DNA from: Dictyostelium discoideum
Lineage: Eukaryota
Assembly: GCA_000004695.1 (NCBI GenBank)
Contig: CM000151.3
Coordinates: 4,800,001-4,864,000, forward strand
Length of the DNA: 64,000 nt
Reading direction: 5' to 3'
Shown piece after piece: positions 8,420 to 29,309 of the stretch; position 1 is the first letter of the stretch, and every line of letters starts with the position of its first letter. Below the pieces are notes generated by a model, which was given only the letters and a program-made list of their open reading frames with translations, did not search any database and was not told where the DNA came from. The translations under genes and the position numbers were made by a program.

Positions 8420-8470
<51 letters not shown>

Positions 8471-9360
8471 TACAACAACAACAACAACAATTAAATACAA
8501 TTGATGATGATTCAAATAATTATTGTAATACAACAGGTACTATGGATAGTATTGATGAAATTAATAAAAATAATTATAGTGATAGTGAAAGTGATGAATT
8601 AAATGATGATCAAGCACCAATTATAGCACCAGTTCAACAATTATCATTTGGTCGTGTTACTAGAAGACATTCTATTGATATTATTATGTTTGAAAATTCT
8701 AGAGAATTATCAGAATTAAGAAATCTTGAAGATTCAACTAGATATTTGTCACCACGTTCAATGAATAATAATAATGGTAATAATGATAATGGTATCAATG
8801 GTGGTAGTGGAAACTCATTATTTGGATCATCAATTAAAGAAGAGATTGGTGGTACTTCTGATACAAGTTCATTAGCACAATCACCAAATTCATTATCACC
8901 AAGAGCCCCAACAAAGATTATGATATTAGATGATAATCCAGTTAGCTTAAAATTAATGCAACGTATCTTGGAAAGTCGTGGATTCGAATGTTATCCATTC
9001 GATTGCTCAGAGAAAGCCGTTGCTCAATTGGATCAAGTTAATCCTGCCATCATTTTCATGGATTGTGAAATGCCAAAAATGAATGGTTTCGAATGTACTC
9101 AATTAATAAGAAAGAGGGAACAAGAATCACTTTGTCTATTAAAAGATCGTAAGATTATTATTGCTTTGACTGCTCATATTAATCCTGAAATTCAAGTTAA
9201 ATGTTTCGATGCTGGTATGAATGATTTCATCTCAAAACCATTCAAACCACAATGCTTAGAATTAATCCTTAGAAAATGGGAAGATTGTATAAGTAATAAT
9301 CAATTAAATTATAACAATAGTTTAATTAATAATCAAACTACAATTCAAGAGCAAGTTTAA
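5683..9360 (+). CDS. Hybrid sensor histidine kinase (Dictyostelium Dhk family), 1225 aa, single exon.
   Basis: H-box HLSHELRTPIHSV, N-box NLIGNGLKYT, G1 VKDSGIGI, G2 GSGLGLAISKDLVELMGGKIW. The C-terminal receiver domain is IMILDDNPVSLKLMQRIL…IIFMDCEMPKMNGFE…KPF. The N-terminus has a hydrophobic anchor FLLSTLFFTIISIILFYFFI. A degenerate receiver-like segment (LSVLVVDKNPY…VVMIDIDN) sits between the kinase core and the true receiver. Long poly-N, poly-S and poly-Q tracts are present. Which Dhk paralog this is cannot be decided from sequence alone. Confidence 0.9.

Positions 9361-9429
<69 letters not shown>
9361..9429. repeat. (TAA)n microsatellite immediately after the histidine-kinase stop codon
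   Basis: About 23 perfect TAA units. Confidence 0.95.
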
Positions 9430-9625
9430 GACTCATAGTGTATTTTTAATTTTATAAAAAAAAAAAAAAAAAAAATTTGTAAATAATGGTAATAATAATA
9501 AAAAAAAAAATTAATATGTTTGTTCGAAATTTTTAATTAAACAAATAAACAAAAAATAATATTGTAAATAAATAAAAAATAACAATTAAAATTATTTTAA
9601 TTTTCTTTAAATATATTTTTTTATA

Positions 9626-9666
<41 letters not shown>

Positions 9667-9754
9667 TTCAAAAATACGATATATGTTAAAATATTTATCT
9701 TTTTTAATTTTAATTTTTTTTTTTTTATTTTTATTTTTTTTTTATTTGATTTTT

Positions 9755-10120
9755 TTAATTAATAACATCAATAATATTAAATATTGCTGGTTGTTCACTT
9801 TTATTAATATATCCAAAATTAAAATATGTACCATTCTTTAGACCCCCATTTTGACTAATATATTTTGGAAATGAAAATTTATTTGATGAGATTTGTTCTA
9901 CAGACCATACATTTTCCAATTCTAAATTTGATACACCAACAATGGTTGCCCCAAACACTATGGCTTTTCCAGTATTTCTTACCCTTACATCCCAGACTGA
10001 GAATGGTTGACCATTATGATTCCAAGAACTTGTTAGTGCTTGTGATATGGTTAATTGTTGACTAATTACTAATGAAAAAAGGGCAAAGAAAAATAAAATT
10101 AAGAATAATTTTTTGGACAT
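9755..10120 (-). CDS. Small secreted CBM49-type carbohydrate-binding protein
   Basis: Signal peptide MSKKLFLILFFFALFSLVISQ. Then SWNHNGQPFSVWDVRVRNTGKAIVFG…NVWSV…GGLKNGTYFNFGYINKSEQPAIFNII fits the CBM49 consensus pattern (W..G..Y..v.vtNtg…iW…G.….fGyi). Single exon. Confidence 0.6.
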   Translation of the reverse strand: MSKKLFLILFFFALFSLVISQQLTISQALTSSWNHNGQPFSVWDVRVRNTGKAIVFGATIVGVSNLELENVWSVEQISSNKFSFPKYISQNGGLKNGTYFNFGYINKSEQPAIFNIIDVIN

Positions 10121-10228
10121 TGCTTTTTTTTTTTTTTTTTTATATAATTTTATTTTTTTAATAAACTTTTCTTTTTATTTCTAAATTGTTTGTTTGATTA
10201 ATAAAAATAAAAAAAAAATTGTTTAAAT

Positions 10229-10267
<39 letters not shown>

Positions 10268-10740
10268 CCAACTAAATTTATTTGGTTTTTTTTTTTTAAA
10301 ATAATTATTTTACTATAATAAGTAAACCACATAATTTAGGTAAAAAAACACACACCTCAAAATGGATTTTGTTTGTAATTTTAAATTAAAAATAAAAGAA
10401 TTAAAAAAATCATTTTTTAAAATCAACAAAAAACTTTTTTTGTTTTTTCAAACACACCACCAAAAAACAATTTTTTTTTCATTATGATGTTACCTATATT
10501 TTATAAAAATTAATAATTAAAATGAAAAAATATGGGAATTGTTTGGAAAAAACTTTTTTTAAAAAAAAAAACAATTCGGTTAATAATTATTTATTAATTT
10601 TTTTAAATTGTTTAATTGTTAATTTTAAAATTAAATCAAGTGATTGAAAATGGGGGGTACTGAATTCATTTTTTTTTTTTTTCCATTTCTATTTCATTTT
10701 CCTTTTTTTTTTTTTTATTTTTTTATTTTTTTTTTTTTTT

Positions 10741-12557
10741 CTAATTACCAAAATAAAAATTTGAAAAAATAACTAAAACTATTAAAATTGATAAAGTGAT
10801 TAAACAAATTTGTGCAATAATTTTTGAGTATCTTCTTGGAATTAATGATAAACTTTTAAAGTGATTAGTTGTAATATTAGTATTTTCTTCAGTATCTCTT
10901 GTTTCAAGTGAAAGTTCTTTTAATATCTTTTCTTGTTCTGGTGTAAAAAAACTTTCATAATTTTCACCATTTGTAAAACCTTCTTCAATATTATTTAATT
11001 CTATTTGATTTGATTCTAGTCCTTCTTTTCCTTGTTTTTGTTTATTATTTATTTTATTTTCAAATTTTTGTTGTTTATTATAATTATTTAATTTATTTTT
11101 AAAGTTTAAAGATTTTATATAAAGAATAAATGGTATAATGAAATTTGCAATTGAACCAAAGAATAAAGAAGAATAATTTGAAATTATATTTAACCAATCA
11201 CCAGTTTGAAATGGAATTACAATTAACCAAGGTAAAACTATTGAAATTAAATTTGCAATCCAAGTTGGAAAGAATTTATTTTGAGTTAAATTATATCGTA
11301 CAATGATTGAAAAAACTGGTATTGTACTTGCCAATACAATAAAAGGGAATAAATAAACTGATAATTTTGAAAATATATTTGCTTTTTTAGATAAATTAAT
11401 TAAACTAAGAATGGTGGAATTTGGAGACATTGAAGAGAAAGTTAATGCACCAAATACACCAACAATAATGAATAATACCGTTGAAAAACTTGTTGAAATC
11501 CAAACTGATCTTTTTAAATTAACATTTGGTTTAGACTCATTTACCCATGATGGTATAGTTGTAATGAATGCATAATTAAACATACAATTACCAATGATTT
11601 GTGATATACCACTCATATGGTTACCAATAGTTGGTAAATTATCAGTTGATAATCCAATCAAAATGAAAATAACAACCCAACTAATTACAATTACCAACAT
11701 AATGATAACACATGCAATTTGTATGATTATATTATCATTTAAATTAAAGAATGCCAATGGTACAACCAGAACTAGTATAGCTAAATAACCAATTGTTATA
11801 AACATATAATCATCTTGAAATGGTGATCCACCATCACCACTATTCTCAATTACACATATCCACCCATTGGAAAAAGAGATCCCACATGTTTTTTTGAAAA
11901 TAAATACCATTAAACTATCGAAAACTTGTGAACATATGATAATACTTGCAATATTTGTAATGATTAAACTTATATTTATAAATAATTGTGATACTAAATA
12001 CATTGATTTACCAAAATAAAATCTACATATCATTGTAAACTCTATACGTAATGCAAATTTATTATTTCCTGGAATCATTGACATTGATTCTATTATAAAT
12101 AATGCCGATATTCCACTTAAACCTAACATTAAAATATATCCTAATAATGATAAAAACCATCCACCTTGTTGAAATTGATAACTAATATTAACCATTCCTG
12201 GTCCTGTACAATTACCAATTAATAAACATATTCCACCAATTGTTCCACTTTTTTTTTAATTTTTTTTTTAAAACAAATTAATTTTTTTTTTTTTTATATA
12301 ATTTATTAAAATTAATAATAATATATTTATATATATTAATTATATACATACATTGATTTTAAACCAAATTTTTTTTTAAAATCTTCATCTTTTTGTGGGT
12401 TTGGAAAATTCTCTAAAATTTCTTCAGTTGATGATATTGAAGAAGATGAAGTATTTGCTGTATCGTTTGTTGAAATTATTGTTGTTCCACCAGAAGTTTT
12501 TGTTGGATTGGGAAATGAAATTAATTCAACATTTTCATTTGTATTTAAATCACTCAT
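10741..12557 (-). CDS. Transmembrane amino-acid transporter (Aa_trans/SLC36-38-like). Exons 12352..12557 and 10741..12247; intron 12248..12351 (104 nt).
   Basis: The large ORF is multi-TM (about 10 hydrophobic segments). It continues in frame upstream of its annotated Met through KSIGTIGGICLLIGNCTGPGMVNIS…, the Aa_trans N-terminal G-rich motif. The upstream exon (MSDLNTNENVELISFP…KKKFGLKS) ends at a GTATGT donor in phase 2 and joins at AAAAAG|TGGAAC, restoring the frame. Confidence 0.75.
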
Positions 12558-12751
12558 AATACAAATTATTCTTTTTTTTTTTTGATTTTTTTTTGATTTT
12601 TAAAAAAAATAATAATAAAAATAATAATAATAATAAAAATAATAATAATAATAAAAAAAATAATAATAATTTTTTAATAAATAACAATAACAATAAATAA
12701 AAAATAAAAAAATAATTTTAATATTAAAAAATAAAAATTAACAATATTTTT

Positions 12752-12786
<35 letters not shown>

Positions 12787-13639
12787 TGTTATTGTTTAAT
12801 TGCAGTTTTAAATTGTTTTTTTTTTTTTCAATCGCTAATTAAAAAAATGATAGTGGGGAAAAAAAGGGATAAATGGGGTATGAAAGTTGGAAAAATGATG
12901 ATTTTATTGTAATTATTAATATTTTTTTATTTTTTTTTTTGTGTGTGTGTTTTTTTTTTTATTTTTTAATTTTTTTGTTTTTATTTTTAAAACAATATTA
13001 TAAACAACCCAAACCAAATGTGGATCATATTTAAATAATTAAGATTCGTTAGTGATGACTCACACTAAAAAAAAATTAATAGAAAAAAAAAAAAAAAAAA
13101 AAAGAAAAAAAAAGAACAAAAAAAATAAAAAAAAAATAAAAAGACAAAACAAAAATTGATTTTAAGAAATTCAGAAATTCAGAAAAAAGAAAAAAAAAAC
13201 ATTGGTAAAAATTAAAAAGACAAAACAAAAATTGATTTTAAGAAATTCAGAGAAAAAAAAGTAAATGATGATGTTGGAGTACATTTTACACAAAGCACCA
13301 TTTTAATATTATTATTATTATTAATTGATTGTTGTTAAGTTGGTTTAATTCTGATGCATTAATTTAAGTTGAGAGTGGATTAAGTTTTGGTTCAGTTGAA
13401 ATGGGTAATTAATATTTTTTGAAAAAAAAAATATTAATAAGAAAGGATCATTTTCATTTAAATTTTAAAAAACAGAAAAAAAAATTTCAGATTATAATAA
13501 TTTAATATAAATTAGTTAATTAATTGTAAAAAAAAAAAAAATTAAAAAAAATTATAAAAAGTACTTTTTTTTATCTTTGGTAATTATTATTATTTGAATT
13601 TATTTATTAAAAACATAAATAAAAAATTCTAATGTGTGT

Positions 13640-13691
<52 letters not shown>

Positions 13692-13751
13692 GATTAAATC
13701 AAGATTTTAAATTTTTAATCTGGTTTATTTTTTTTATTGAAATTTTATTTA

Positions 13752-13884
13752 TTAACATGAAACTGTTCTATAAATATCCTCGTGCCAAACAAATACATTA
13801 CGTCCACAAGTCATTAACTCTGGTGAAGTTGTACAATTTGTTGGATAGTCTTCGCAATACTATGAAAAATATTAAAAAAAATAT

Positions 13885-13915
<31 letters not shown>

Positions 13916-14016
13916 TTTTAACTATTATCGTTTTTTAAAATTAATTTCAATAAAACTTACCAATACTGATGCTGAAATTAAAAAAATAATTAAATTGGAA
14001 ATTTAAATCGTGTGTT

Positions 14017-14060
<44 letters not shown>

Positions 14061-14729
14061 ATTTAATACATATGTTCACCTTGATCACAATAAAATTTTG
14101 AAAAAGAATTATTTCCTAAAAAAAAAAAAAAAGAATTATTAATTAGTAATCAATTTAAAAAAAAAAAAAAATAATAATAATAATGATAATAATAATAAAT
14201 AATTTTATTACCTAAATGGAAAACAGTATTATTTGTATAAAAATAATACCATTGAGGATTACCTAAACAATTTGGATCAGTAAATTGAGAATATTTATAT
14301 GCATATTCTGGCATACTTGTTGGATTTTCTTTAATTGTAACCAAAACATAATTATATGGTTGATAATACATGTAACCAATATCTGGAACTTTGTAACACT
14401 CATTAGGAAAAAAAAGTTACATCATCTTCTGAATTTGAATTTGAACATGTAATATCAGACCCTTTATATAACTGAAATGTTGCATTTGCATTATCTTTTC
14501 CAAGTGTTTTATAATTATTTAAAGTTGATGTAAAATCACCAATAGCAAAACATTCACCAACAACAAATGCATAACAAACTCCATTTTCACCTTTTGATAC
14601 CGTACATTCATAATCTTCGTATGGTGTCATCTCTACATAATAAACTGATTCAACAACCAATATTGTTGAAAAACAACAAATTATAATAAATAAACAAATA
14701 AAATAAATTAAATTATTATTATTAAACAT
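13752..14729 (-). pseudogene. Secreted Cys-containing family protein, paralog A of the gene at 16957..17847. Probably disrupted. Exon-like parts: 14212..14729, 14080..14115, 13961..13971, 13752..13859.
   Basis: It shares the signal peptide and the STILVVESVYYVEMTPYED…VVGECFA…NPTSMP…NPQWY…FYC module with paralog B. The frame breaks inside an A8/T8 homopolymer at about 14408..14415 (DDVTFFS* followed by +1-frame …ECYKVPDIGYMYYQPYNYV). An AT-rich (TAT)n insertion at 14116..14211 is flanked by GT..AG. The donor after exon 1 is degenerate: GGTGAACATATGT, where paralog B has GGTGAACGTAAGT. The 11-nt micro-exon (CATCAGTATTG) and the terminal exon (YCEDYPTNCTTSPELMTCGRNVFVWHEDIYRTVSC*) are retained. 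Confidence 0.5.
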
Positions 14730-14831
14730 TTTAAAAAACTAAATGTGAAAATAAAAAAAAAATAAAAAAAAAAAAAAACCAAAATAAACCTTATAAAAAA
14801 GTAAATTAATTATGAATAAAAATATAAAATA

Positions 14832-14990
14832 TTAATTTTTTGAATATTTAGATCCTAATACTTTAATGACCCCATCTGATTTTGAGTCAATCTCTTGGTG
14901 ACATTGATCACATTTTTCGTATTTTGTTTTAGTTATGTTTTGAATACATGTTGCACACCATGGTTTACTTTCATATTGATAAAATTCATC
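14832..14990 (-). other. Orphan exon-like ORF encoding a C-x2-C-x11-C-x2-(C/H) zinc-ribbon-like peptide; no start codon found.
   Basis: Translation is …KKIDEFYQYESKPWCATCIQNITKTKYEKCDQCHQEIDSKSDGVIKVLGSKYSKN*. It follows an AG (AAATAG|GATGAA) and an upstream in-frame stop, so it looks like a 3' exon. No convincing upstream exon exists between it and the Gfo/Idh/MocA gene. Confidence 0.2.
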
Positions 14991-15158
14991 TATTTTTTTT
15001 TTTAAAAAAAAAAAAAATTAGTTATCTTTATGAAAATCTTGACGTCATAAAACAAAATAAAATAAAATATCCAAAAATATCTTTTTTTTTTTTTTTTTTT
15101 TAAAAAATAATTTTAAAACTTTATAAAATATCTAAAAATATCTTTTTTTTTTTTTTTT

Positions 15159-16451
15159 TTAAAAAGTTAAAACACTATTTTTTAATCTTGATTTTTCAGA
15201 TTCAAATACTAATTTATGAGAAGCAAGAGTATCATCAGGACCAGATAAAATTTGAGTTGGATCATTTTCAGAGACTGCATAAATAAATGATCTCATGAGG
15301 TAATAATCTGAAGCACCATGATTTGACATTTTTGTATTTTGAATTATTTGTGGTTTAAAGATTTCTTTATCACCAAATCTAAAGTCATCATAGACGATGT
15401 CATAACCATTGTTACATTCTAATTGACCCATTGAACCAAAGATTCTAATTTTACGTACACACATACTCTCTGTGAATGCAACCATACTAAAAGAGGAGAG
15501 AGCACCACCTTCAAATTCTAAATTCACAACTTGCTGATCGACTACGTCATTATCACTCTCATAGACACATCTACCATAGGGACCGTTTTCAATTGCCAAT
15601 TTAACATTCTCTTTTGTTGGCTCTCTATCTGGTACTAGTACATCCCTTTTCCAAGGATAATGCTCTAAATAAATCTTTTGAGCACTGTATGGACACGTTT
15701 TGCTAATTGCGCATTCTACACATCTCTTTGCACTACCAGCATTGGTAGGTTTTTTCTCCTTTTTAAAGTATGTCAAGCTACCAAATGACGATACTTTCTT
15801 GCACTTTTTTCCGCCCATAAAATAATGAATCAAGTCAAGATCATGACACGACTTTGCCAATAGCATGAATGTCGAGGTTGAGAGTTTTCTCCAATTGCCT
15901 CTGACATAGGAATGGGCGTGGTGGTAGTACCCCACAGGCTCCAAATGCTGGATGTTTAGCACCTCCCCTATCAATCCACTGTCTATCAATTGCTTGATTT
16001 TAATATTAACCGGTGAGTATCTCAATACGTGGCAAACAGATAACATGACATTGTTGGCTTTGCAAGCTGATGTAATTCTCTCACAATCTTTTTCAGTGAT
16101 AGCTAATGGTTTCTCTACTAATAAATGATACTTTTTATTAGCAAATGCAATTGCAGGCTCACAATGTAATTGGTCGGGTGTTGCTATTAACACTGCATCT
16201 GCGAATTTATCCATTGATATTATGTCTTTCCAATTTTCAAATATCATATCACTTGATAATCCAAATTCATTACCAAGTGTATCTCTTCTAAATTTAATTG
16301 GATCACATACTGCAACAATCTTTAATCTATTTGGTCTTTCAATTGAATATCTACTATAAACATATCCTCTTTGACCACACCCAATTATTATTAATTTTAC
16401 AATTTTATTATTATCAAATTTCTTTTCTTCATTTTCAATATTATCTTCCAT
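15159..16451 (-). CDS. Gfo/Idh/MocA-family NAD(P)-dependent oxidoreductase (430 aa)
   Basis: N-terminal Rossmann fold KLIIIGCGQRGYVYS…IVAVCDP. The family pattern …EKPLA…DLIHY… is present. Single uninterrupted ORF. Confidence 0.8.
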   Translation of the reverse strand: MEDNIENEEKKFDNNKIVKLIIIGCGQRGYVYSRYSIERPNRLKIVAVCDPIKFRRDTLGNEFGLSSDMIFENWKDIISMDKFADAVLIATPDQLHCEPAIAFANKKYHLLVEKPLAITEKDCERITSACKANNVMLSVCHVLRYSPVNIKIKQLIDSGLIGEVLNIQHLEPVGYYHHAHSYVRGNWRKLSTSTFMLLAKSCHDLDLIHYFMGGKKCKKVSSFGSLTYFKKEKKPTNAGSAKRCVECAISKTCPYSAQKIYLEHYPWKRDVLVPDREPTKENVKLAIENGPYGRCVYESDNDVVDQQVVNLEFEGGALSSFSMVAFTESMCVRKIRIFGSMGQLECNNGYDIVYDDFRFGDKEIFKPQIIQNTKMSNHGASDYYLMRSFIYAVSENDPTQILSGPDDTLASHKLVFESEKSRLKNSVLTF

Positions 16452-16956
16452 TTTTTTTAATAACTATACTTTTTTTATATATAAATAATTATTAGATGTA
16501 GTGGTAAAAAATTAAAGAAAATAAAAAAAAAAAAAAAAAATTAATTAAAAAAAAAAAAAAAAAAAAAAATTAAAAAAAAAAAATTCAGAGAACGTTCAAA
16601 TAAAAACATTTAAACTTTAATGGGATAAATGAAATAATAAAAAAAAAAATAAAAAAAAGGTATAAAAAAAGGTATTAAAAAAAAAAAAGGTAGCTGTTTA
16701 ATTTAAATTTTTTATTTTGTCAAATCATTTTTGTTTTAAGAATGAATAAATAAAAAAAAAAAAAATATTAAAATATTGAAAAAAAAAAAAAAAAAATCAG
16801 CTCAATTATTTTTTTTTATTTGGAATATATTTTAAATAAAATAATCAAGATTTAACTCTTTTTTTTTTTCATTTATAAATTAAAATTATTTTTCATTTTT
16901 TTATTTTTTTTTTTTTTTTTTGGTTTGTATAAAAAAAAAAAAAATATTAATTATAT

Positions 16957-17847
16957 TTAACATGAATCTAAATAGTAAATGGGTTCTTTCCATGCCCATG
17001 CATTACGACTACATGGTCTGTATATATCTGTAGATGTGCAATTACTTGATGAACCTTCACAATACTATTTATAAAAAAAATATATAAAAATATTAGAATA
17101 ATTTTAAAAAACTAGTTTTCCTGTTTTTTTTTTTTTTTTTTTTTTTTTAAACTTACCAATTCGTATGCTAATTTTTATTTATATTATATTTGAATGAAAC
17201 AAATAAAATTTAATTTTATTAGGATCTATAATTTTAATATTTTATAATTTTTTTTTTTAAAAAAAAAAGGTTAAAATATACTTACGTTCACCTTCATCAC
17301 AATAAAATTTACTGAAATCATTATTACCATAATGGAATGTTGTACCATTTGTATAGAAAAAGTACCATTGGGGATTGGTAGCACAATTGGAATCACTATA
17401 TTGTGTGAATTTAAAAGCATACTGTGGCATGCTTGTTGGATTTTCTACAATTGAAACTAAAACATAATTATATATATTTGGATACATATTATTGTCAGCG
17501 TAATTTGGTGCATTATAACAACTTCCTGATTGATAAGTAACATCATTTACTGGATTAGCTTGTGAACATGTTGAATCTGAATTTTGATATTGATGAAATG
17601 TTGCTGTATTATTACCAACACCGCTAAGTGAAATCACATAATTATTAATTATTGGCGCAAAACTACCAACAGCAAAACATTCACCAACAACAAATGCATA
17701 ACCAACTCCACTTTCACCTTTTGAAACTGTACATGCATCATCTTCATATGGTGTCATCTCTACATAATAAACTGACTCAACAACCAATATTGTCGATCCG
17801 ATTAATAACAATAAACTTAAAAAATAAATAATATTTTCAAATTTCAT
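16957..17847 (-). CDS. Secreted Cys-containing family protein, paralog B (intact). Exons 17286..17847, 17157..17167 (11-nt micro-exon) and 16957..17064.
   Basis: Signal peptide MKFENIIYFLSLLLLIGS. Exon 1 ends …FYCDEGE at a GTAAGT donor in phase 1. The micro-exon CATACGAATTG is flanked by TTAG and GTAAGT. The final exon (acceptor AAATAG) encodes YCEGSSSNCTSTDIYRPCSRNAWAWKEPIYYLDSC*. Exon sizes and phases match paralog A. Confidence 0.6.
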
Positions 17848-18449
17848 TTTTTTTTTTTTTTTAATTTTTTTTTTTTATTATTATAATTAATTTGAATTTA
17901 TTTTTATATAAAATGATCAATAATAAAAAAAATTAAAAAAAATTTTAAAAATAAAAAACTAAACAAAAAAAAAAAAAAAATTAAAAAAAATCATTTTTTT
18001 AAGATATTTTGGATAATTCAATTATAAAAAAATAAAATATCTTTTTTTTTTTATTGGAGAAATAATAAGAAAAATCTTTTTTAACACATCACCAATTCTA
18101 TTTTTTTTAGGTGACACCTTTCTTGAAATAAAAAAATAAAAATCCAAAATAAAAAATTCTAATAAAATTTAAAAAAAAAAATAAAAAAAAAAGATTATTT
18201 ATAGGTATATAAAATTTAATACAATGAAAACCTTATTTTAATTAATTTTTTGGGTGTTTAATAAATAAAAAATAATAAAATCTGTGTGTGTTTTTTTTTT
18301 TTTTTTTTTTTTTGTAAAGTGGGTCTTTATTTTTATTTTTATTTTTGTTTTTTATTTTTTATTTTTTATTTTTTATTTTTTATTCATCAAAAAAAAAAAA
18401 AAAAATACCACTTAATAAAAAAAGCTTATAATCAAAAATAAAAAAAAAA

Positions 18450-19598
18450 ATGATTAGTGCAAATATAAAAATTATAGTTTATGGAGGTAAATCTGGTTGG
18501 ATTGGTCAAAAAATTATAGAGTTATTAAAATTAAATGATAATATTGAATATCATATAAGTGACTGTAGACTTGAAAATAGAGAATCAATTTTAACTGAAT
18601 TAGATAAAATTAAACCAACATCAGTAATAAACTGTGCAGGTGTAACTGGAAGACCAAATGTAGACTGGTGTGAAGATAATTAACAAGAAACAATAAGGTA
18701 AAAAAAAAAATATTAAAAATAATTAATTAAATTAGGCAATTTATTTCTTTTTTTTTTTTAAATGAAATAATTTTTTATAATATTTCAAAAACTACTATTT
18801 AAAAATAAAAAGTTACCAAATTTTATTAATTTGTATTTTCTATATAAATTTATTTAAAAGAAAAAAAAAGAAAACTAATTTAATTTTTTTTTTTATTTAT
18901 TTTTTTTTTTTATTTTATTTTTTTTTTTTTTTTATTAATAATTTTTTATTTTTTATTTCATTTTATTTAGATCAAATGTAATTGGTACTTTAAATTTAAT
19001 TGATTGTTGTTATTTAAGATCAATTCATATAACAAATTTTGCAACTGGATGTATTTATAAATATGATGAAAATCATCCAATGTATTCTGGTATTGGATTT
19101 AAAGAAGAGGAAGAATTTAATTATTTCGAATCACATTATAGTGTAACAAAACAAATGGTTGAAAAATTAACAAAACATTATGAAAGTAATACATTAACAT
19201 TAAGATTAAGAATGCCAATATCAGAGAATTTAAATGAACCAAGAAATTTCATTACAAAGATAATAAATTATGAAAGAGTTGTAAATATTCCAAATAGTTG
19301 TACAGTTTTACCAGACCTATTACCAATAGCAATTGATATGTCAATTAAACAAATTAAAGGTGTTTATAATTTCGTTAATCCTGGTGTAATTTCACATAAT
19401 GAAATATTAGATCTTTATACATTATTAATTAATCCAAATTTTAAGTATCAAAATTTCACTGAAATTGAACAATCAAAAATTTTAAAATGTGGTAGATCAA
19501 ATAATCATTTAGATACAACAAAACTTGAATCATTATATCCAACAATACCAAATATTAAAAAATCAATTGAAAATATTTTTTTAAATTCAAAAAAATAA
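18450..19598 (+). CDS. NRS/ER-like bifunctional dTDP/UDP-4-keto-6-deoxyglucose 3,5-epimerase/4-reductase (rhamnose synthase C-terminal type). Exons 18450..18697 and 18971..19598. An in-frame TAA lies at 18681..18683.
   Basis: The match to recalled Arabidopsis NRS/ER is strong along the whole length: KIIVYGGKSGWIGQ…KPTSVINCAGVTGRPNVDWCE…ETIR|SNVIGTLNLIDCC…ATGCIYKYDENHPMYSGIGFKEEE…PRNFITKI…NPGVISHNEILDLY…. The donor is ATAAG|GTAAAA and the acceptor TTATTTAG|A. The stop codon replaces the conserved Lys of CESHKVETIR. Confidence 0.7.
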
Positions 19599-19659
19599 AT
19601 TATTTATTATTTTTTATTATTTTTTTTTTAATTATTTAATTATTTTATTTAGTTTTTTT

Positions 19660-22302
19660 TTAAAATTGATATTTCCATTTTAATGGTACTAAATTAAAAG
19701 AAATATTTGTAATTGATAAATTTGTTTTTAATGAACGTTCAAAAACTTCTTTTGAACGATAAGTTAATTTATTAAAACTAAGATCTAAAACTTGAATATG
19801 AGTATTTGTAGCTAATGATTCAGCAAAGATTATACCAACTTTATCATTTATTTCATTTTCATTCATATTTAAACGAATTAAATGAGTACCATCATTTGCT
19901 AATAATGAAGCAATTGGTAAACTACCTTTATCACCTAAAGAAGTATAAGAGAGTTCTAAATGAATTAATGATCTATTTACTTTTAATGAATCTGCAATTA
20001 ATTGACCAAATTGAGGTGATAACTTGTTTTGACTCATATTTAAAAGTTTTAAAGTTTTATTATTTGATAAAGCCTCTGCGATATATTTGGCACCAGCATA
20101 GTCGATTTGATTACCAGAGATATCCAACGATTTCAATGAACAAGTTGAAGAATTTAATGCACGAGCAATACCCTCTGCAAAACCATTACCTAAACTATTG
20201 GTTGATAGAGATAGGGCAGTAATAGTTTTATTATTCGATAAAGCATCGGCTAATTCCCAACCACCTGAAGTATCGAAAATTCTATTATCGGAAAGATTTA
20301 ATCTTGTAATTGTACTATTAACTTCCAATGCTCTCGCAATCGATATTAAACTTACACCCAATTTATTAGATTTAAAATTAATGTCCACTAATGTAGAAGT
20401 TTTCTTTGAGAGTGTTTTTGAAATCTCTGATGCACTTGCACTTTCTAATTGACAATTTGATAAATTCAATTCATTCAATACGGTGGTGGTTGATTTACCT
20501 AATGATTCGAAAAATACAGCACCCGATTGATCATCGATATGATCCAAATGAACCGATTTCAAAGTACTATTATGAGCCAATGAATTACCAAGCATAATTG
20601 CAGTTTGACCATTGATATAATTTAAACGTAAATAAAGTCTCTCCAATTTATTATTGGTTTTCATTGCTCTTGCCAATGCAATACCACCCTCTGGTGCAAT
20701 ATGATTGTAAAAGAAATCAATGGTTTTCAAACTTGTCTTATTGGTTGACATAAGTTGTGCCAATTTTATAGCTGTTGCATTACCAAGTTTATTACCACGA
20801 AAATCTATCGATTCAATAGTAGTATTCTCTGATAGTGCATTTATAACTGCATCTATTGAATCATCATCTAAATTACCATGACGAAATGATAAATGAGTAA
20901 TGGAAGTATTAATTCTCAATGCATTACCAATTGCCATGAAATTCTCTGGCGAGATCCATTTTTGATAGAATCTAAAATAAGTCATCGAATTTGCAACCTC
21001 AAAGAATTGGGTGAATAAATTTTTACTAAATGAATTTGATAAGATCGGTTTAGTGGTAGCTTTCATGAATTTCTCAGGTACACGATCTGGCATTGTATGT
21101 TTTACAACATTCATAAATTTTTGAAATGTTGATGATTTATCAATATGCATTGCAACATAGTAAAATTTAAATTTCTTACCACCCTCAATTAAACCTTGTG
21201 TTGTCAATTGAATTAATGAACGTAAATGTTTTGGTGATTTAACAGTGAAATAAGTGAATACTTGTGGAGCTAATTTACATCCCCATAATTTACAAACTAA
21301 ACAAATTGTTTCCAATTCTAAATTTGGATTCTTTTTAACTATTATACCATTGCCACTATTACTACCACTATTATTTAAACTATTTAATAATGATGATCCC
21401 AATGGTGAACCACCATCAGAACCTGATGAACCACCTGACATACTTAATTGACCATTGTTGTTGCTTCCGTTATTGGATGCACTTTCACCCTCTGGTGAAC
21501 CACTAAATCTTATCTCTGATTTCTCTAAATCAACTTTATTCTCTATTAAATAATATAAAATCTTTGTTATAACTGTATGTGGTAAATTATTTATATTCAA
21601 TTTATCTGTAGATTTAAAAAATGTTTTACTTAATGATTTCTTTAATTGACCATGTTTTGATTCTTTATTCTCTTTTTCTTTTTTACTTGATCCCAAACTT
21701 GTTGTAATTGTACTTGTTTCATCATCTTCATTAAAATCAACTGCTTTATTTAATTCTACATTTTTATGACGTCTAATATGATGATGTCTATGTTCTTTAT
21801 CTTTATGTTCTTTATCTTTATGTTCTTTATCTTTATCCTTATGTTCTTTATCTTTATCTTTATGTTCTTTATCTTTATGCTTATGTTCTTTATCTTTATG
21901 TTCTTTGTGTTCTTTATCTTTATGTTCTTTATGTTCTTTATGTTCTTTATGTTCTTTATGTTCTTTATGATCATCATTATCATTGGTAGTTGTATCTTCA
22001 AAATCTGATGAATCAGGACTAAGAGTAAGTTCACCTAATCCATCTGGTAAATTTTTATTTTTTTTACTACTTTTCTTTTTATTTGGTGAATGAAATGCTG
22101 ATGCTATGAATGCTAATGGTGATGATGGTCTTCTAGGTTTAGTTTGTGGTGGTGATTTATGAAGTTTTGTATTGTTTATTGTTGATAACTCTTCGGCATT
22201 ATTATCAAACGATGATGATAATCCACCACCTTTTGGTGGGGAATTTTGTGGTATTAATTCTATACTATCCACTAATATTTTTGGTGGTGGTAATTCACTC
22301 AT
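19660..22302 (-). CDS. F-box-like / leucine-rich-repeat (ribonuclease-inhibitor type) protein with an (HKEHKD)n His-Lys-Glu repeat, 880 aa
   Basis: The N-terminal region carries the HKEHKEHKEHKDKEHKEHKDKEHKHKDKEH… repeat. An F-box-like segment is LPHTVITKILYYLIENKV. The C-terminal half is RNI-type LRRs, about 28 residues each, of the form L..L.LS.N.I.D.G...LA.AL..N..L. Single ORF. Confidence 0.85.
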   Translation of the reverse strand: MSELPPPKILVDSIELIPQNSPPKGGGLSSSFDNNAEELSTINNTKLHKSPPQTKPRRPSSPLAFIASAFHSPNKKKSSKKNKNLPDGLGELTLSPDSSDFEDTTTNDNDDHKEHKEHKEHKEHKEHKDKEHKEHKDKEHKHKDKEHKDKDKEHKDKDKEHKDKEHKDKEHRHHHIRRHKNVELNKAVDFNEDDETSTITTSLGSSKKEKENKESKHGQLKKSLSKTFFKSTDKLNINNLPHTVITKILYYLIENKVDLEKSEIRFSGSPEGESASNNGSNNNGQLSMSGGSSGSDGGSPLGSSLLNSLNNSGSNSGNGIIVKKNPNLELETICLVCKLWGCKLAPQVFTYFTVKSPKHLRSLIQLTTQGLIEGGKKFKFYYVAMHIDKSSTFQKFMNVVKHTMPDRVPEKFMKATTKPILSNSFSKNLFTQFFEVANSMTYFRFYQKWISPENFMAIGNALRINTSITHLSFRHGNLDDDSIDAVINALSENTTIESIDFRGNKLGNATAIKLAQLMSTNKTSLKTIDFFYNHIAPEGGIALARAMKTNNKLERLYLRLNYINGQTAIMLGNSLAHNSTLKSVHLDHIDDQSGAVFFESLGKSTTTVLNELNLSNCQLESASASEISKTLSKKTSTLVDINFKSNKLGVSLISIARALEVNSTITRLNLSDNRIFDTSGGWELADALSNNKTITALSLSTNSLGNGFAEGIARALNSSTCSLKSLDISGNQIDYAGAKYIAEALSNNKTLKLLNMSQNKLSPQFGQLIADSLKVNRSLIHLELSYTSLGDKGSLPIASLLANDGTHLIRLNMNENEINDKVGIIFAESLATNTHIQVLDLSFNKLTYRSKEVFERSLKTNLSITNISFNLVPLKWKYQF

Positions 22303-23245
22303 TTTTTAATTTTATTTATATATTTATATACAGGTTTTATTTTTAATTTTATTATTTATTTATTTATTTATTATTGAATATAAAAATATTTTTTTATTAT
22401 TATTTTTTATTTTAATTTTTTTTTTTTTTTAATTATTTATTGGAAAAAAAAGAAAAAATAATAAAACTAATTAAAGTAAAATGTATATGTTTTATACAAA
22501 AATAGTATTATAAATAATTTTTTATAAAAAGAAATGCAAATTTGGTATGACAACGACTGACAGATTTTTTTTTTTTTAAGTGTTTAATTTATGAAAAAAA
22601 GAAAATTAAAAAAAAATGAAATAAAATTAAAAAAAAAAATTAAAAAATTAAAAATAGGTTACAATTTTTTTTTTTTTTTTTTTTTTTTTATTATTTTATT
22701 TTAAATTATTATTATTATAATTATTCTACTTTCTTTATTTTATTTTTTTTTTTTTTTTTTATTATTTTATTTTTTTTTTTTTTATTTTTTTTTTTTTTAA
22801 TGACTTTTAAAGTGATTAGTGGTGAACTGTTTGGAATGAAAATAAAAATAAAATTTTTTGGCAAAGGTTGGATTAAAAAAAAAAAAAAAATAAAAATAAA
22901 AAAAAAAAAAAAAAATAAAAATAAAAATAAAAATTAAATATTTTTTTTGATTATTAGAACCACCAAAACGAAGTGTCTTTTTTTTATGAAAATAAAAAAA
23001 TCAGCTTACGAAAATTTTCAAGATCACAATGCAAATATTTGATATATAACTTTTATTTTATTTAAAAATTTTATAATTGTTTATAATTATTATTTTTTAA
23101 ATTATATTTTCTAACCCTCAAAAACTCATAGTAATCAAATTATCTCAATTCTTAAACAAAAAAAATAAAAAAATAAAAATAATACTTTTAATTAAACCTT
23201 ATTATCAGACTTTCTCACTCATAATATCAAAATAAAAAAAAAAAT

Positions 23246-23276
<31 letters not shown>

Positions 23277-24885
23277 TTTTTTATTTTCAATTAATTTTAA
23301 AAAATCTAAAAATAAACCGACAAAATAACCTCACATTCTTTTCGGGTTACATTTTTAAAATAACTACTAAGGGTGGTAATACAAGCCCTATCGAATTAAA
23401 TTAATAAAAAAAAAAAAAAAAAAAAAAATAATAAAAAAAAAAATTATAATATTAAAAACTAAAATTCTTAATTTAAAACAATTTTTTTTTTTTTTTTTGT
23501 TATTACTGAAATCTGAATCATAATGCAACGACAATTTTTATAATATTTATCTTATGAATCTGAATTTGAATCTGATACATTAATTTTTTATTATAAATAA
23601 TTATTGACACCACTATTTCATTTCCCATTATTTTTTATTGGGAAACAAAAAGCCCTGTTTAGTGATTTCAAAAAAAAAAAAATAATAAAAAAATAAAATG
23701 TGTATATATGTATATTTGAAAAAAAAAAAAAATCAATATTAAAAAATAATTTGAATGGCAACTCATTTTGATTACGTTCAATATTTAAATTTCAATTAGT
23801 TTATAGTTTTTTATTTTTTTTTTATTATTATTTTTTTTTTTTAAAAAAAAAATTATCTCAAGTGATTCAAATAATGATCAGAAAATAAAAAAAAAAAAAA
23901 AAAAAAAATGAAATAATGGCAACAAATCGAACAGGTATGCAATCAAGTTTCAAATAACCATCATGAAATATTTAAAAAAATAATAAAATTAAACAATGGG
24001 CAACAAATCAAACAGATATACAATCCCGTTTCAAATAACCATCAAATAAGCATCAAAAAAAAAAAAAAAAAAAAAAAAATTAAAAATGGTAAACTTATGT
24101 TATGTGGTAATTTAATTTCAAATAAAGATCAAGAAAAATATGGAAAACTAGTAAAAATATTAAAAAAAGTTATTTTTATTTTTATTTTTATTTTTTTTTT
24201 AATTTTTATTTTTTTTTCTTCGATTTCCAAGATTACTTTTCCATCATTTTCATAATAAAATTTAGGCCTATTATTAAATTATTATGATAAAAAAAAAAAA
24301 TAGTGTTGAGGGAAAATATTTTATTTTGCTTTGGTATAAAATTTTTTTTTTATTTTGGTTTACAAATCTCGATGGATATTTAACTCTTTTTTTTGAGAGA
24401 GAGTTTTTTTTTATTTTTTTTTTTAATTTATTTTTGCGCCCACACACAAAGCAACACATACAAAAAAACCATGTCAGTGACCACGTTGACAATTAAAAAA
24501 ATTACATAAAAATAAAAATAATTTAAAATTATTTTTTTTGATTTTTTTTTTTTTTTCCAATTTTTTTTTTTCTTCTCACATTTTTTTTTGAATTTTATTT
24601 TTTATTATTTATATTTTTTTTTAAATTTTATTTTTTTTTTTTTTAAAAATTTCTTTTTTTTTTTTTTTTTTTTTCTCAAAAATTACTTTTTTTTTTTATT
24701 ATTATTTTTGATAAAATAAAATTTTAAAGTTTTATACATATAGTTTTTTAATAAACAAATAATAATAAATAAATAATAATAAATAAATAATAATAAATAA
24801 AATATATAAATAAATATTTTAATAAATATAAAATTTTTTTTCACTTTTTTTTTTTTTTTCTTTTTGTGTATATAAATTAAAAAAA

Positions 24886-24948
24886 ATATAATATAAAATA
24901 TAAAATATAAAATATAAAATATAAAATATAAAATATAAAATATAAAAT
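24886..24948. repeat. (ATAAAAT)n heptanucleotide repeat abutting the bZIP start codon
   Basis: aatataaaatataaaat… repeated about 9 times, ending in ATG. Confidence 0.9.
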
Positions 24949-25156
24949 GGTTGAATTAGAATCAATGTCATCATCAAGCGAATGGTTTTTAAATAATAAC
25001 AGTAATATTCATAATAATACACACAATCATAATCATAATAATAATAATAACAATAATAATATAAATAGTAATAATCACGGCCATAGTGCAAATAGTAGTG
25101 CACACAACCACAACAACAATAATAATAATAATACCAATAATAATAGCAACAATAGC

Positions 25157-25194
<38 letters not shown>

Positions 25195-25762
25195 ACAAAA
25201 TACAAATAATGGTACATTTTTAACACCATTACCTGTATTAACTAATAGTAGTACTGGTTTGGGAAAAAGTATTGATTGGTTATATACAAACACCTCAAAT
25301 ACCGACTCACATAATATAAATTCAAGTAGTAATAAAGTTACAAAACTTTCAAATGGATTTTCTTTATTAAATCAAGATGGTACTCAATCACCATCATGCT
25401 TTTTAAATTTATCCTCAACTGGTAACCACGAAGATCCTGTACAAGTTCCAATGAACAATAATCCACAAGATCTCTTATTCCAATTTAATATTTCACCACA
25501 ATTACAATCACAAAATAATAATAGTAGTAATAATAATAATAACAATAATAACAATGGTAGTAATACTCCATTAAATGGTAGTAATGGTAGTAATAATAAT
25601 TATTCATCACCAATTTCACCAGTACCACAATACCAACACTCTGCTGGTTCTTCACCAATCCAAGAGTATCCATATTATTCACCATCATCATCACCCCATT
25701 CAAATGAATCAACCTCACCAATTACAGTTATTAAAGATAGTGGTAGTATTATAAATCCAATC

Positions 25763-25815
<53 letters not shown>

Positions 25816-26902
25816 TAATAATAACAATAATAATAATAATAAAAACAATTTAAATAATAATACATTCCAATTTTCATCATTAAAAAGTACAACTGGTATT
25901 GCACCACCATTACAAACCGATTATCATTTATTATATAATTTTGTTCAACAAAATTTTTCTGGAAAACCAGAAGATTCATTATTAAACCAAACTTTAAATA
26001 ATAATAATAATAATAATAATAACAATAATAATAATAATAATAATACAACAATCCAAACTTCACCACAACCACTTGTTTTACCACAAATTCAAAATCCATT
26101 TTTACCATATAATATTTCGACTCCAATTTCAGTTCCAAATAATATTTTATCATCAGCTCAATCATCAACAAATTCATCACCAAACAACAACAACAATAAT
26201 AATAATAATAATAACAATATTTTTTCAACTGTTAATAATAATAATAATCTCGTAAATAATAACAGTAATAATATGGAATTAGATGTAGATAAACCATTTT
26301 CACAAGAAAAATTTTATTTACACTTAAAATCAATTGTACCAAGTTTTAATGAAAATTTTGAAGCATCATCTGAATCTGCACAATCTGAATCATCTCAAGA
26401 AAGTGATTATGATGCACTCAATGAACGTAATAGTGGTGTTAAGAAGAGAGGTAGAGATGAAGATCAAATCGATACATCTGGTCAAGTTGTTTTATCACGT
26501 GAACATGTTTTGAAATTATCAAGTAAAGAAATTGAAGAATATGTTTCACGTTTAAAGATGCACCATATTCTTACTCAAGCCGAGGAAAAAGAATTGAAAA
26601 AACAAAGACGTTTAGTAAAGAATCGTGAATATGCTTCACAATCTCGTTCTCGTAGAAAGATTTATGTTGAGAATATTGAAACAAAACTTCAAAAAACAAA
26701 TCAAGATTGTGCTTCAATTAAATCTCAATTAAATTCAGTTAAAGAGGAAAATAAAGCCTTAAAGAAACAATTGTACAGTTTAACTAATACTCTTAAAAGT
26801 AATCCTTCTTTAGCTGAAGCATTTGGAAAAATTTTCTCTCCAATAGGTAATAATAAAACTTCTTCTGCTACATTATTTGTAAGTTTTATTTATTTAATTT
26901 TA

Positions 26903-26943
<41 letters not shown>

Positions 26944-27492
26944 AAATAAAAAAAATATACTAACTTTTTTATAATTTTTAGGTATTTTTCTTTTTATTTA
27001 CATTTACATTTTTATTCCAATCTTCTACAGTTACCTTTAATTCAGAGTATGTTTTATTTTTTTTTAAAATACCATTAGCGTTCATAAAATTTATATTAAT
27101 TTTTTTTTTTTTTCTCTTTTTATAGTAGGGTATCTTCAATTCAACGTAATCTTTTAAGTTTAGAAGAAACTCAAGCAACAGAATGGAACATAAAGAGAGC
27201 CATTCTTGAAGAAACTAAACAATATGTCGATTCTTTGTTAACCTCCTTATATACTTCAAAACTACAATCTTTATCAGAAACTCCTTTAGATACATCTAAT
27301 TATATCATCAACAACAACAATAACGAATCAACTTCCGAAACAACAACAAACAACAAAGTAGTTTCGACATCTAGTGATGATATTTCAAATGTTTTATCAA
27401 ATCTTTCTGTTTCCGATAAAGAAGTTCCTCAAAAGTGTAAAGATTCATCTGATTTAAAATGTGATTCTCCCCCACTTTCACCTTTAAATTAA
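24947..27492 (+). CDS. bZIP transcription factor. Proposed exons 24947..26878, 26982..27046 and 27126..27492; only exon 1 is certain.
   Basis: Canonical bZIP basic region KKQRRLVKNREYASQSRSRRK followed by a leucine zipper (L-x6-L heptads: LQKTNQDCASIKSQLNSVKEENKALKKQLYSL). Long poly-N tracts precede it. Exon 1 ends at GTAAGT (26879). Intron 1 is 103 nt and has TACTAAC at 26958..26964 and acceptor TTTTTAG. Inferred exon 2 encodes the hydrophobic segment VFFFLFTFTFLFQSSTVTFNS. A GTATGT donor at 27047 joins in phase to an acceptor at 27124/27127 and the ORF …RVSSIQRNLLSLEETQATEWNIKRAILEE…SPLN*. Confidence 0.6.
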
Positions 27493-28600
27493 TAAAATTT
27501 TTATTTATTGTTTCATAAATTTTTTTTAGGTTAATCATTTAATCACTTTTTTGTTTAAATATTTCATTTTTTTTTTTTTAACCTTTAATAATATCTTTAC
27601 TACACCCTCATTTAACCCAGTTTTTTATCAATAAAATGACCATAAGATGATTTACAATTGTCTAATGATTGAATATAATTAATATTTACGAAAATGTTAG
27701 AAAAAAATTTAATAATTAATTTTTTACTTAAATTATTTTTTTTAATTAATAATATATTATTTTTATATTTGTTTGTATATATGTCTGTAATACTATAAAT
27801 TGTTATTTATTAGGCATACCCTCTTTTGTAATATTATACATGAGAATGAACAATATTATATACAGAATTATATATTTAATTACAGAAAAAATATAACAAA
27901 CTTTAACTGAGTATTTAAATTTTTTTTGATATTTTTTATATTTTTTTATATATACATAGCCTTCATTTATTTTTTAAGGTAATTAATTTCAAAACAAGAA
28001 AGAATTCTTGAAAAAAAAAAAAAAACTACTTTTATTTCTTTTTTTATTTTCAATTGATCAATCAACAATAACCAATAAAAAGAATAATAAAAAGAATAAA
28101 AAGTAAATGTGAAAAAAAGTTACTATAAAGCAACTAATAATATTTTATTTTTTATTTTTTCAAATTAAACACAATTTTTTTTTTATGTTCCCACCACGAT
28201 TAGTTAATGTTTTTGTGGTGAATTGATGAATTATAAGATTATACCAAAATTATTTTTTATATATTTAATGTACGGATTGTTTTTGATTGATGAGAACAAT
28301 TTAAATAAAAATCAAATTAAAAAAAGTTAATTATATTTTAATTTTTTTATTTTTTAATTTTTTTTTTTGTTTTAATTTCCCCCAACACAAATTTTTTTTT
28401 TTTTTAAAAAATTTTGGTTTTAATGAAAATCGATGTTCCATTGAAATTTTTAGTTGTGTTTGTGAAAAATACTATTTATTTTTTTATAAAATTGAATAAA
28501 AAAAATCCCAAAGAAAAAAAATAAATAAAAAAATAATAATTTATTTTTATTTTTATTTTTTTATTTTTTTATTTTTTTTTTTTTTTTAATTTGTAGTCAA

Positions 28601-28639
28601 ATTATTATTATTATTATTATTATTATTATAATTATTATA

Positions 28640-28678
<39 letters not shown>
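28601..28678. repeat. (ATT)n microsatellite
   Basis: attattatt… with a few ATA variants. Confidence 0.9.
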
Positions 28679-29309
28679 GTTTTTTTTTTTTTTTAGATAT
28701 TCAGTTTTAAATATGTTTGTAAATAAATAAAATTGTAATTAATTAATGAATTTGTAAAAATAGAAAAAAAAAAAAAAAAAAAAACATAAAAATAACCAAT
28801 AAATATCCATAAAAAAAAAAAAAAAAAAAAAAAGGCTTTTTCTGAAGAAAGTTTTTTTTTTTTTTTTTTTGTATATTTATTGTTTATTTCTATCTTTTTT
28901 TTTTTTTTTAGTGATCCACCTTTTTCCCACTTATCGAAAAAAAGGGGTATTTTTTAATATCCTTTCCGTTCCATGTTTTTTTTTAATAATTTCCATATTA
29001 ATATAAAATTTTTTCCATTTTTTTTTTTTTTATTAAATAATAATCTAGGATAAGCGAAATTTTTTTTATTTTTTTTTAAATTATTTTTAATTTATTATTA
29101 ATTAAGGGACCCCGAATTCTATTTATTTATTATTCATTAATTTTTTATTTTTTTTTCTTTTATCCAGGCGAGAAAAAAATAAAAACAAATTTAACACCCT
29201 CATTTTTAAACAGTTATCATCTAAAAATAACATTTTAATAAAATTATAATTTAAAAAAAATAAATAAATAAATAAATAGATTTTATATTTTAAAAAAAAA
29301 AAAAAAAAA

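Follow-up and report, generated by a model that had tools for sequence, protein, structure and literature searches.

Among the described enzymes closest to the gene considered here, NRS/ER of Arabidopsis thaliana (At1g63000; PDB 4QQR) is a stand-alone protein, not fused to a dehydratase, and its single RmlD-like SDR domain combines a GxxGxxG motif, a Thr/Tyr/Lys triad, and a Cys/Lys pair. Bacterial RmlD (dTDP-4-dehydrorhamnose reductase; PDB 1VL0 and 8G22) performs the 4-keto reduction step but is a reductase only, requiring a separate RmlC epimerase and dTDP substrates. A third relative is L780, the UGER of Acanthamoeba polyphaga mimivirus and a UDP-L-rhamnose synthase (PDB 7JID), in which Cys108 and Lys175 are the epimerisation residues, validated by mutagenesis (PMC9614988). 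We analyzed a 64,000-nucleotide stretch of chromosome 2 of the Dictyostelium discoideum AX4 reference (hereafter, the window), which holds a stand-alone gene with all of the listed features of the plant enzyme and with Cys and Lys at the positions equivalent to the catalytic pair of L780. The reading frame of this gene is broken by one TAA codon, whose origin is the main subject of this study.

Gene structure and enzyme family

The gene occupies positions 18450-19598 of the window on the forward strand. Exon 1 (18450..18697, +) comprises codons 1-82 and two bases of codon 83 and carries the GxxGxxG NAD(P)-binding motif. It is followed by a 273-nt intron of 7% GC (18698..18970, +), with GT at 18698 and AG at 18969-18970, and by exon 2 (18971..19598, +), which extends from the remainder of codon 83 to the stop codon at 19596-19598 and encodes Thr108, Cys110, Tyr139-x3-Lys143, and Lys179. 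Joined together, the exons give 291 codons with a single internal stop, the TAA of codon 78 (18681..18683, +), in which position 18681 is T. Bases 18678-18686 read AAT TAA CAA within the wider context GAT AAT TAA CAA GAA ACA ATA AG/GTAAAA (the slash marks the end of exon 1), and the spliced peptide around the stop is ...VDWCEDN*QETIRSNVIGT....

In the AX4 annotation, the locus appears as two separate genes. DDB_G0274989 (XP_644279.1; 18450..18683, +; 77 aa) is the ORF that runs from the ATG at 18450 to the TAA, and DDB_G0274991 (XP_644280.1; 19080..19598, +; 172 aa) begins at the internal Met120; in a database search, the 172-aa ORF at 19080-19598 was 100% identical to the latter. Residues 78-119 are absent from both ORFs, which cover residues 1-77 and 120-291, and hence both lack Thr108 and Cys110. 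We found no mention of either gene, or of the site of the stop, in the literature searched. Look-ups of the exact products of the two ORFs matched no record, and members derived from reads were absent from the protein clusters. The original prediction stated that no choice of splice donor could bypass the stop, on the ground that no GT lies between the preceding Cys codon and the TAA. This is correct in substance, but a GT does exist inside the Cys codon (18670-18671, GTGAAG). Its use with the acceptor at 18969-18970 removes 28 nt and shifts the frame. We therefore rejected an alternative splice that skips codon 78: this is the only nearby GT, and the residues concerned are kept in all orthologs.

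The 291-codon product was queried for domain and structure matches with X at codon 78. It aligned over residues 4-284 with residues 11-288 of the Arabidopsis NRS/ER chain (E = 2.6e-96), in agreement with the predicted two-exon NRS/ER homolog, and the X fell on the Lys of CESHKVETIR, which is where the TAA (CEDN*QETIR) had been placed from the sequence alone. L780 matched residues 5-285 (E = 1.5e-58); this viral enzyme is more distant than the plant one and has small insertions around the equivalent of codons 68-80. Pfam PF04321 (RmlD_sub_bind) and PF01370 (Epimerase) both exceeded their cut-offs. Bacterial RmlD, which shares PF04321, gave weak and partial matches (E = 4e-5 to 3e-4).

The expected catalytic residues are all present in the AX4 sequence and conserved among 13 aligned orthologs. 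The nucleotide-binding motif reads YGGKSGWIGQ (G13-x-x-G16-x-x-G19), with G16 and G19 invariant and G13 nearly so. T108, Y139, and K143 are invariant and align with the plant ATGC and YSKTK motifs; from general knowledge of SDR enzymes, we take them to be the reductase triad. C110 and K179 are likewise invariant and align with Cys108 and Lys175 of L780. Judged by its sequence, the locus forms a single two-exon gene, whose product is a 291-aa NRS/ER (UGER)-type UDP-4-keto-6-deoxy-D-glucose 3,5-epimerase/4-reductase, predicted to be the last enzyme of UDP-L-rhamnose synthesis. The enzyme family is well known, and the gene is unremarkable within it.

Comparison with orthologs and with AX2-214

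Annotated full-length proteins of 290-292 aa are found in seven further assemblies from the D. discoideum/citrinum complex, in D. dimigraforme, and in D. firmibasis, with more distant orthologs in Polysphondylium, Tieghemostelium, and Entamoeba. A comparison with other dictyostelids had been proposed as a check on the stop, and its outcome is uniform: codon 78 encodes Lys in 13/13 aligned orthologs and is AAA in 4/4 orthologous DNA loci compared. An apparent CAA at this codon in D. firmibasis is an offset from a one-codon deletion, and its protein reads CEDNKQETIR. The position and phase of the intron are common to four independently annotated orthologs, with lengths of 81-308 nt, and the end of exon 1 (AATAAG/GTAAAA) is identical in four orthologs. 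Synteny also holds at the orthologous loci, with a CfaA_B_C-family gene upstream and a leucine-rich-repeat gene downstream. With pairwise dN/dS of 0.14-0.25 in the dictyostelid clade, the sequences indicate that the gene is conserved under purifying selection across dictyostelids and is ordinary and selectively maintained. The AX4 copy has no sign of decay. We rejected a decaying unitary pseudogene, given the single stop, the lack of any change besides 18681, the low dN/dS, and the intact catalytic residues.

The most informative comparison was with the assembly ACTFIT (GCA_054883475.1), which is labelled D. discoideum. The ACTFI* assemblies are those of Holland et al. (2025; PMC12745789), who sequenced nine wild isolates picked as distant from AX4 together with AX2-214, and who retained only AX2-214, CR116C, and OT3A as D. 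discoideum. The proteins of the other two assemblies with this label, ACTFIR and ACTFIW, form a pair ~95% identical to AX4, and the ACTFIW locus has ~91% DNA identity to AX4 with gaps included. Since this pair accounts for two of the three retained strains, ACTFIT is probably AX2-214, an assignment made by elimination and not read off the assembly record. Ax2 and AX4 are both descendants of DdB/NC4, and the axeB deletion-insertion is identical in the two, which points to a common axenic ancestor (Bloomfield et al. 2015, PMC4374526). Because that ancestor is shared, real differences between AX2 and AX4 should be nearly absent.

The DNA comparison between AX4 and ACTFIT covered window positions 1-29607 (29.6 kb), over which identity was 99.4-99.6%. 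Across the whole gene, including the 273-nt intron (1,149 bp), the sole difference is at 18681, where the window has T and ACTFIT, with AAA as its codon, has A. The ACTFIT protein accordingly has Lys78 and equals that of the window at all 290 other residues. The suggestion that a single A-to-T change would suffice to create the stop is thereby borne out. Position 18681 is also A in the CR116C/OT3A-type and cf. discoideum loci.

In total, AX4 and ACTFIT differ in the 29.6 kb by 24 clean-flank substitutions (~8e-4 per base) and 25 indel events. All but one of the indel events (24/25) are deletions in ACTFIT of 1-16 bases, nearly all in long A/T homopolymers, a pattern that could come from length collapse in the Nanopore-based ACTFIT assembly or from over-extension in the Sanger reference. 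The substitutions comprise 22 transversions and only 2 transitions, compared with 55-61% transitions in the divergence among lineages in the same region (transitions:transversions of 164:106, 192:158, and 221:141); the probability of at most two transitions among 24 is 1e-7 to 2e-6. The substitutions between AX4 and ACTFIT are thus not evolutionary in character. We found no prior description of such a transversion-only spectrum in the literature searched.

The direction of the differences is equally one-sided. Polarization was limited to the five of 24 sites with reliably aligned outgroup loci (16967, 16982, 18426, 18681, and 27129), and at every one of them the derived base is in AX4 and the ancestral base in ACTFIT. 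Chance errors in ACTFIT could not have produced the ancestral base on five occasions. Among the 19 unpolarized differences, some, such as those at homopolymer borders and in a cluster at 28.3-29.2 kb, may be errors of the Nanopore-based assembly. The three coding differences are all AX4-derived and radical at conserved residues, namely K78 to stop and, in a neighboring gene, H to P and A to D. Random transversions in this AT-rich coding sequence create a stop in 9.5% of cases, so one nonsense change among three coding errors is unremarkable.

Two further patterns were considered. Discrepancies are somewhat clustered near the stop, but not significantly so (P = 0.06-0.14, suggestive only), and we did not take this local clustering as a sign of a faulty read. 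At 20/24 sites versus 13/24, the base in AX4 is a copy of the adjacent one, a difference that is no more than suggestive in DNA so AT-rich.

Other discrepancies and features lie near the gene. The AX4-only transversions at 16967 and 16982 (minus strand) fall in the terminal exon of the CfaA_B_C-family gene that lies upstream, whose C-terminus reads ...KEPIYYLDSC* in AX4 and ...KEHIYYLASC* in AX2-214 and the ACTFIW locus; cf. discoideum and D. firmibasis likewise retain the His. Both changes are probably further errors of the reference, which affect the neighboring gene model. This gene was compared by its terminal exon, and a one-intron model for it did not fit. Two more AX4/ACTFIT transversions, at 18323 and 18426 (+), lie in intergenic DNA immediately 5' of the ATG, and outgroups mark the latter as AX4-derived. 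Downstream, positions 19660-22302 (-) encode an 880-aa leucine-rich-repeat protein with a long HKEHKEHKDKEHK low-complexity tract; it has the same length in ACTFIT, with no substitutions over it, and is 845-865 aa long in other lineages. Farther along, at 28335-29197, 11 AX4/AX2 transversions and small indels are densely clustered in AT-rich intergenic DNA, with many of the transversions at the borders of C- or T-runs; no tRNA gene was found in this interval. We also observed that the ACTFIW and cf. discoideum loci differ from window positions 8000-27500 by ~3-4% mismatches (~91% identity with gaps), in genes and spacers alike. This divergence is far above usual within-species diversity and is consistent with the discussion of cryptic species by Holland et al. 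(2025; PMC12745789).

Origin of the stop codon

The rate of real mutation provides a yardstick for the number of differences. With 2.9e-11 spontaneous mutations per site and generation (Saxer et al. 2012, PMC3466296), fewer than 0.1 real AX2/AX4 substitutions are expected in 29.6 kb, and fewer than 0.003 in the 873-bp coding sequence since the AX2/AX4 split for 1e5 generations. In the same study, resequenced AX4 lines had 1,916 departures from the reference in common, which were ascribed to reference errors or stock differences (PMC3466296). That number corresponds to 0.6-1.7e-4 per callable site, comparable in magnitude to the 1.8e-4 per genic bp observed here. The coverage of the AX4 reference is given as 8x by Holland et al. 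(PMC12745789).

The original prediction had left three explanations unranked: a strain-specific nonsense allele or recent pseudogene, a sequencing error, and translation from two separate pieces. The present data favor the sequencing error. With 24 substitutions where fewer than 0.1 are expected, an excess of transversions, and AX4-derived bases at 5/5 polarizable sites, an artefact is favored over a mutation at 18681, and we consider it very probable that the AX4 reference, sequenced at 8x by the Sanger method, reads TAA at codon 78 through an error of base calling or cloning. In the mechanism that we propose, one wrong base, T for A at 18681, would have entered the Sanger shotgun reference of AX4 chromosome 2 as one of many transversion-type discrepancies along this stretch, and it would in turn have led the AX4 annotation to cut one gene into DDB_G0274989 and DDB_G0274991.

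The nonsense allele is retained as a minority rival. It could be a real and very recent mutation of the AX3/AX4 lineage, arising after the split from AX2 and leaving AX4 a UDP-L-rhamnose null, whose transcript would yield the 77-aa fragment and probably undergo nonsense-mediated decay. The stop does stand in the public reference and in two RefSeq gene models, the change is confined to the AX4 sequence with AAA in AX2-lineage DNA, and the lack of further changes is what one would expect of a mutation dating back only decades. Cells in axenic culture could plausibly do without an enzyme that makes a glycan precursor, and AX3, the parent of AX4, had a history separate from that of AX2 after their common ancestor, in which such a change could in principle have occurred. 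We nonetheless regard this as unlikely. Beyond the very low expected number of substitutions in the coding sequence, 18681 belongs to a set of 22 transversions that cannot be real mutations and that are AX4-derived wherever they can be polarized. The mutagen used to obtain AX3, nitrosoguanidine, produces G:C>A:T transitions, and an A>T change is unlike these. Far less credible is a natural polymorphism, in which a nonsense allele segregating in wild D. discoideum would have been carried by NC4. The intact codon in other isolates of the D. discoideum complex is formally compatible with it on the first comparison alone. The assembly with AAA, however, has only the 2 transitions relative to AX4 in 29.6 kb, while the next lineage differs by ~1.5% at clean-flank sites. 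That assembly is almost certainly AX2-214, which descends from the same NC4 clone, and NC4 therefore carried AAA.

The remaining explanation, functional recoding, treats the stop as meaningful, either through programmed readthrough of the TAA or through a two-part enzyme built from the 77-aa and 172-aa proteins. The base after the stop is C (the next codon being CAA), TAA-C is among the leakier stop contexts in eukaryotes, and both ORFs are annotated as genes. Against readthrough, the stop is not conserved, as the orthologs with Lys include a near-identical conspecific, and no in-frame alternative splice bypasses codon 78. The third proposal of the original prediction, two separately translated pieces, fails on the absence of residues 78-119 from both ORFs: without catalytic Thr108 and Cys110, the active site is not rebuilt. 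We judge recoding in either form to be highly improbable.

Implications and related sequences

If the stop is a reference error, as we favor, the proper annotation is a single 291-aa NRS/ER-type gene in place of DDB_G0274989 and DDB_G0274991, a model that would supply D. discoideum with what looks like a complete last enzyme of UDP-L-rhamnose synthesis. More broadly, premature stops or odd residues in gene models on AX4 chromosome 2 call for a check against AX2-214 before they are given a biological reading. No work on UDP-L-rhamnose in dictyostelids surfaced in our literature searches. By tblastn, neither the window nor the loci L001-L004 (which include those of ACTFIW and cf. discoideum) yielded a UDP-glucose 4,6-dehydratase partner, and a database search seeded with a chlamydial dehydratase was swamped by bacterial-type matches and returned no dictyostelid. 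A tgds gene is presumably annotated in D. discoideum. Should the TAA prove real in AX4, this strain (and perhaps AX3) would be a spontaneous null for UDP-L-rhamnose synthesis and AX2 the wild type, an unrecognized glycan-precursor difference between the two most used Dictyostelium laboratory strains. The UDP-4-keto-6-deoxyglucose of AX4 could then serve only rhamnose-independent roles, of which the UXS1-rescue function of the TGDS product, recently shown (PMC12488480), is an example.

Related NRS/ER sequences from other sources were also encountered. Four metatranscriptome proteins of 408-497 aa (P0003, P0004, P0005, and P0036) contain head-to-tail tandem NRS/ER units within one ORF, in the order partial unit, linker, full unit. 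Their arrangement suggests polyprotein-type or tandem-array transcripts of a eukaryotic source; a reading of these longer matches as RHM-like fusions was rejected in favor of tandem NRS/ER repeats. In addition, a Rhabdochlamydiaceae contig (JAHZTO010002862.1; L005:4355-8332) carries an operon with an NDP-glucose 4,6-dehydratase, an NRS/ER-type epimerase/reductase, a GT61 glycosyltransferase, and methyltransferases, next to which comes an ABC transporter. Its NRS/ER-type protein has 59% identity to the Dictyostelium protein, and the presence of a eukaryote-like rhamnose synthase in an amoeba-associated chlamydia may reflect gene transfer.

Set beside Arabidopsis NRS/ER, which it resembles in domain content and stand-alone organization, the Dictyostelium gene differs in being an amoebozoan ortholog for a putative enzyme, and in that its AX4 copy has TAA at the codon for the CESHKVETIR Lys. 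Set beside the known discrepancies of the AX4 reference (Saxer et al. 2012), the case is similar in being a single-base difference, which at this locus yields a premature stop and two fragment gene models.
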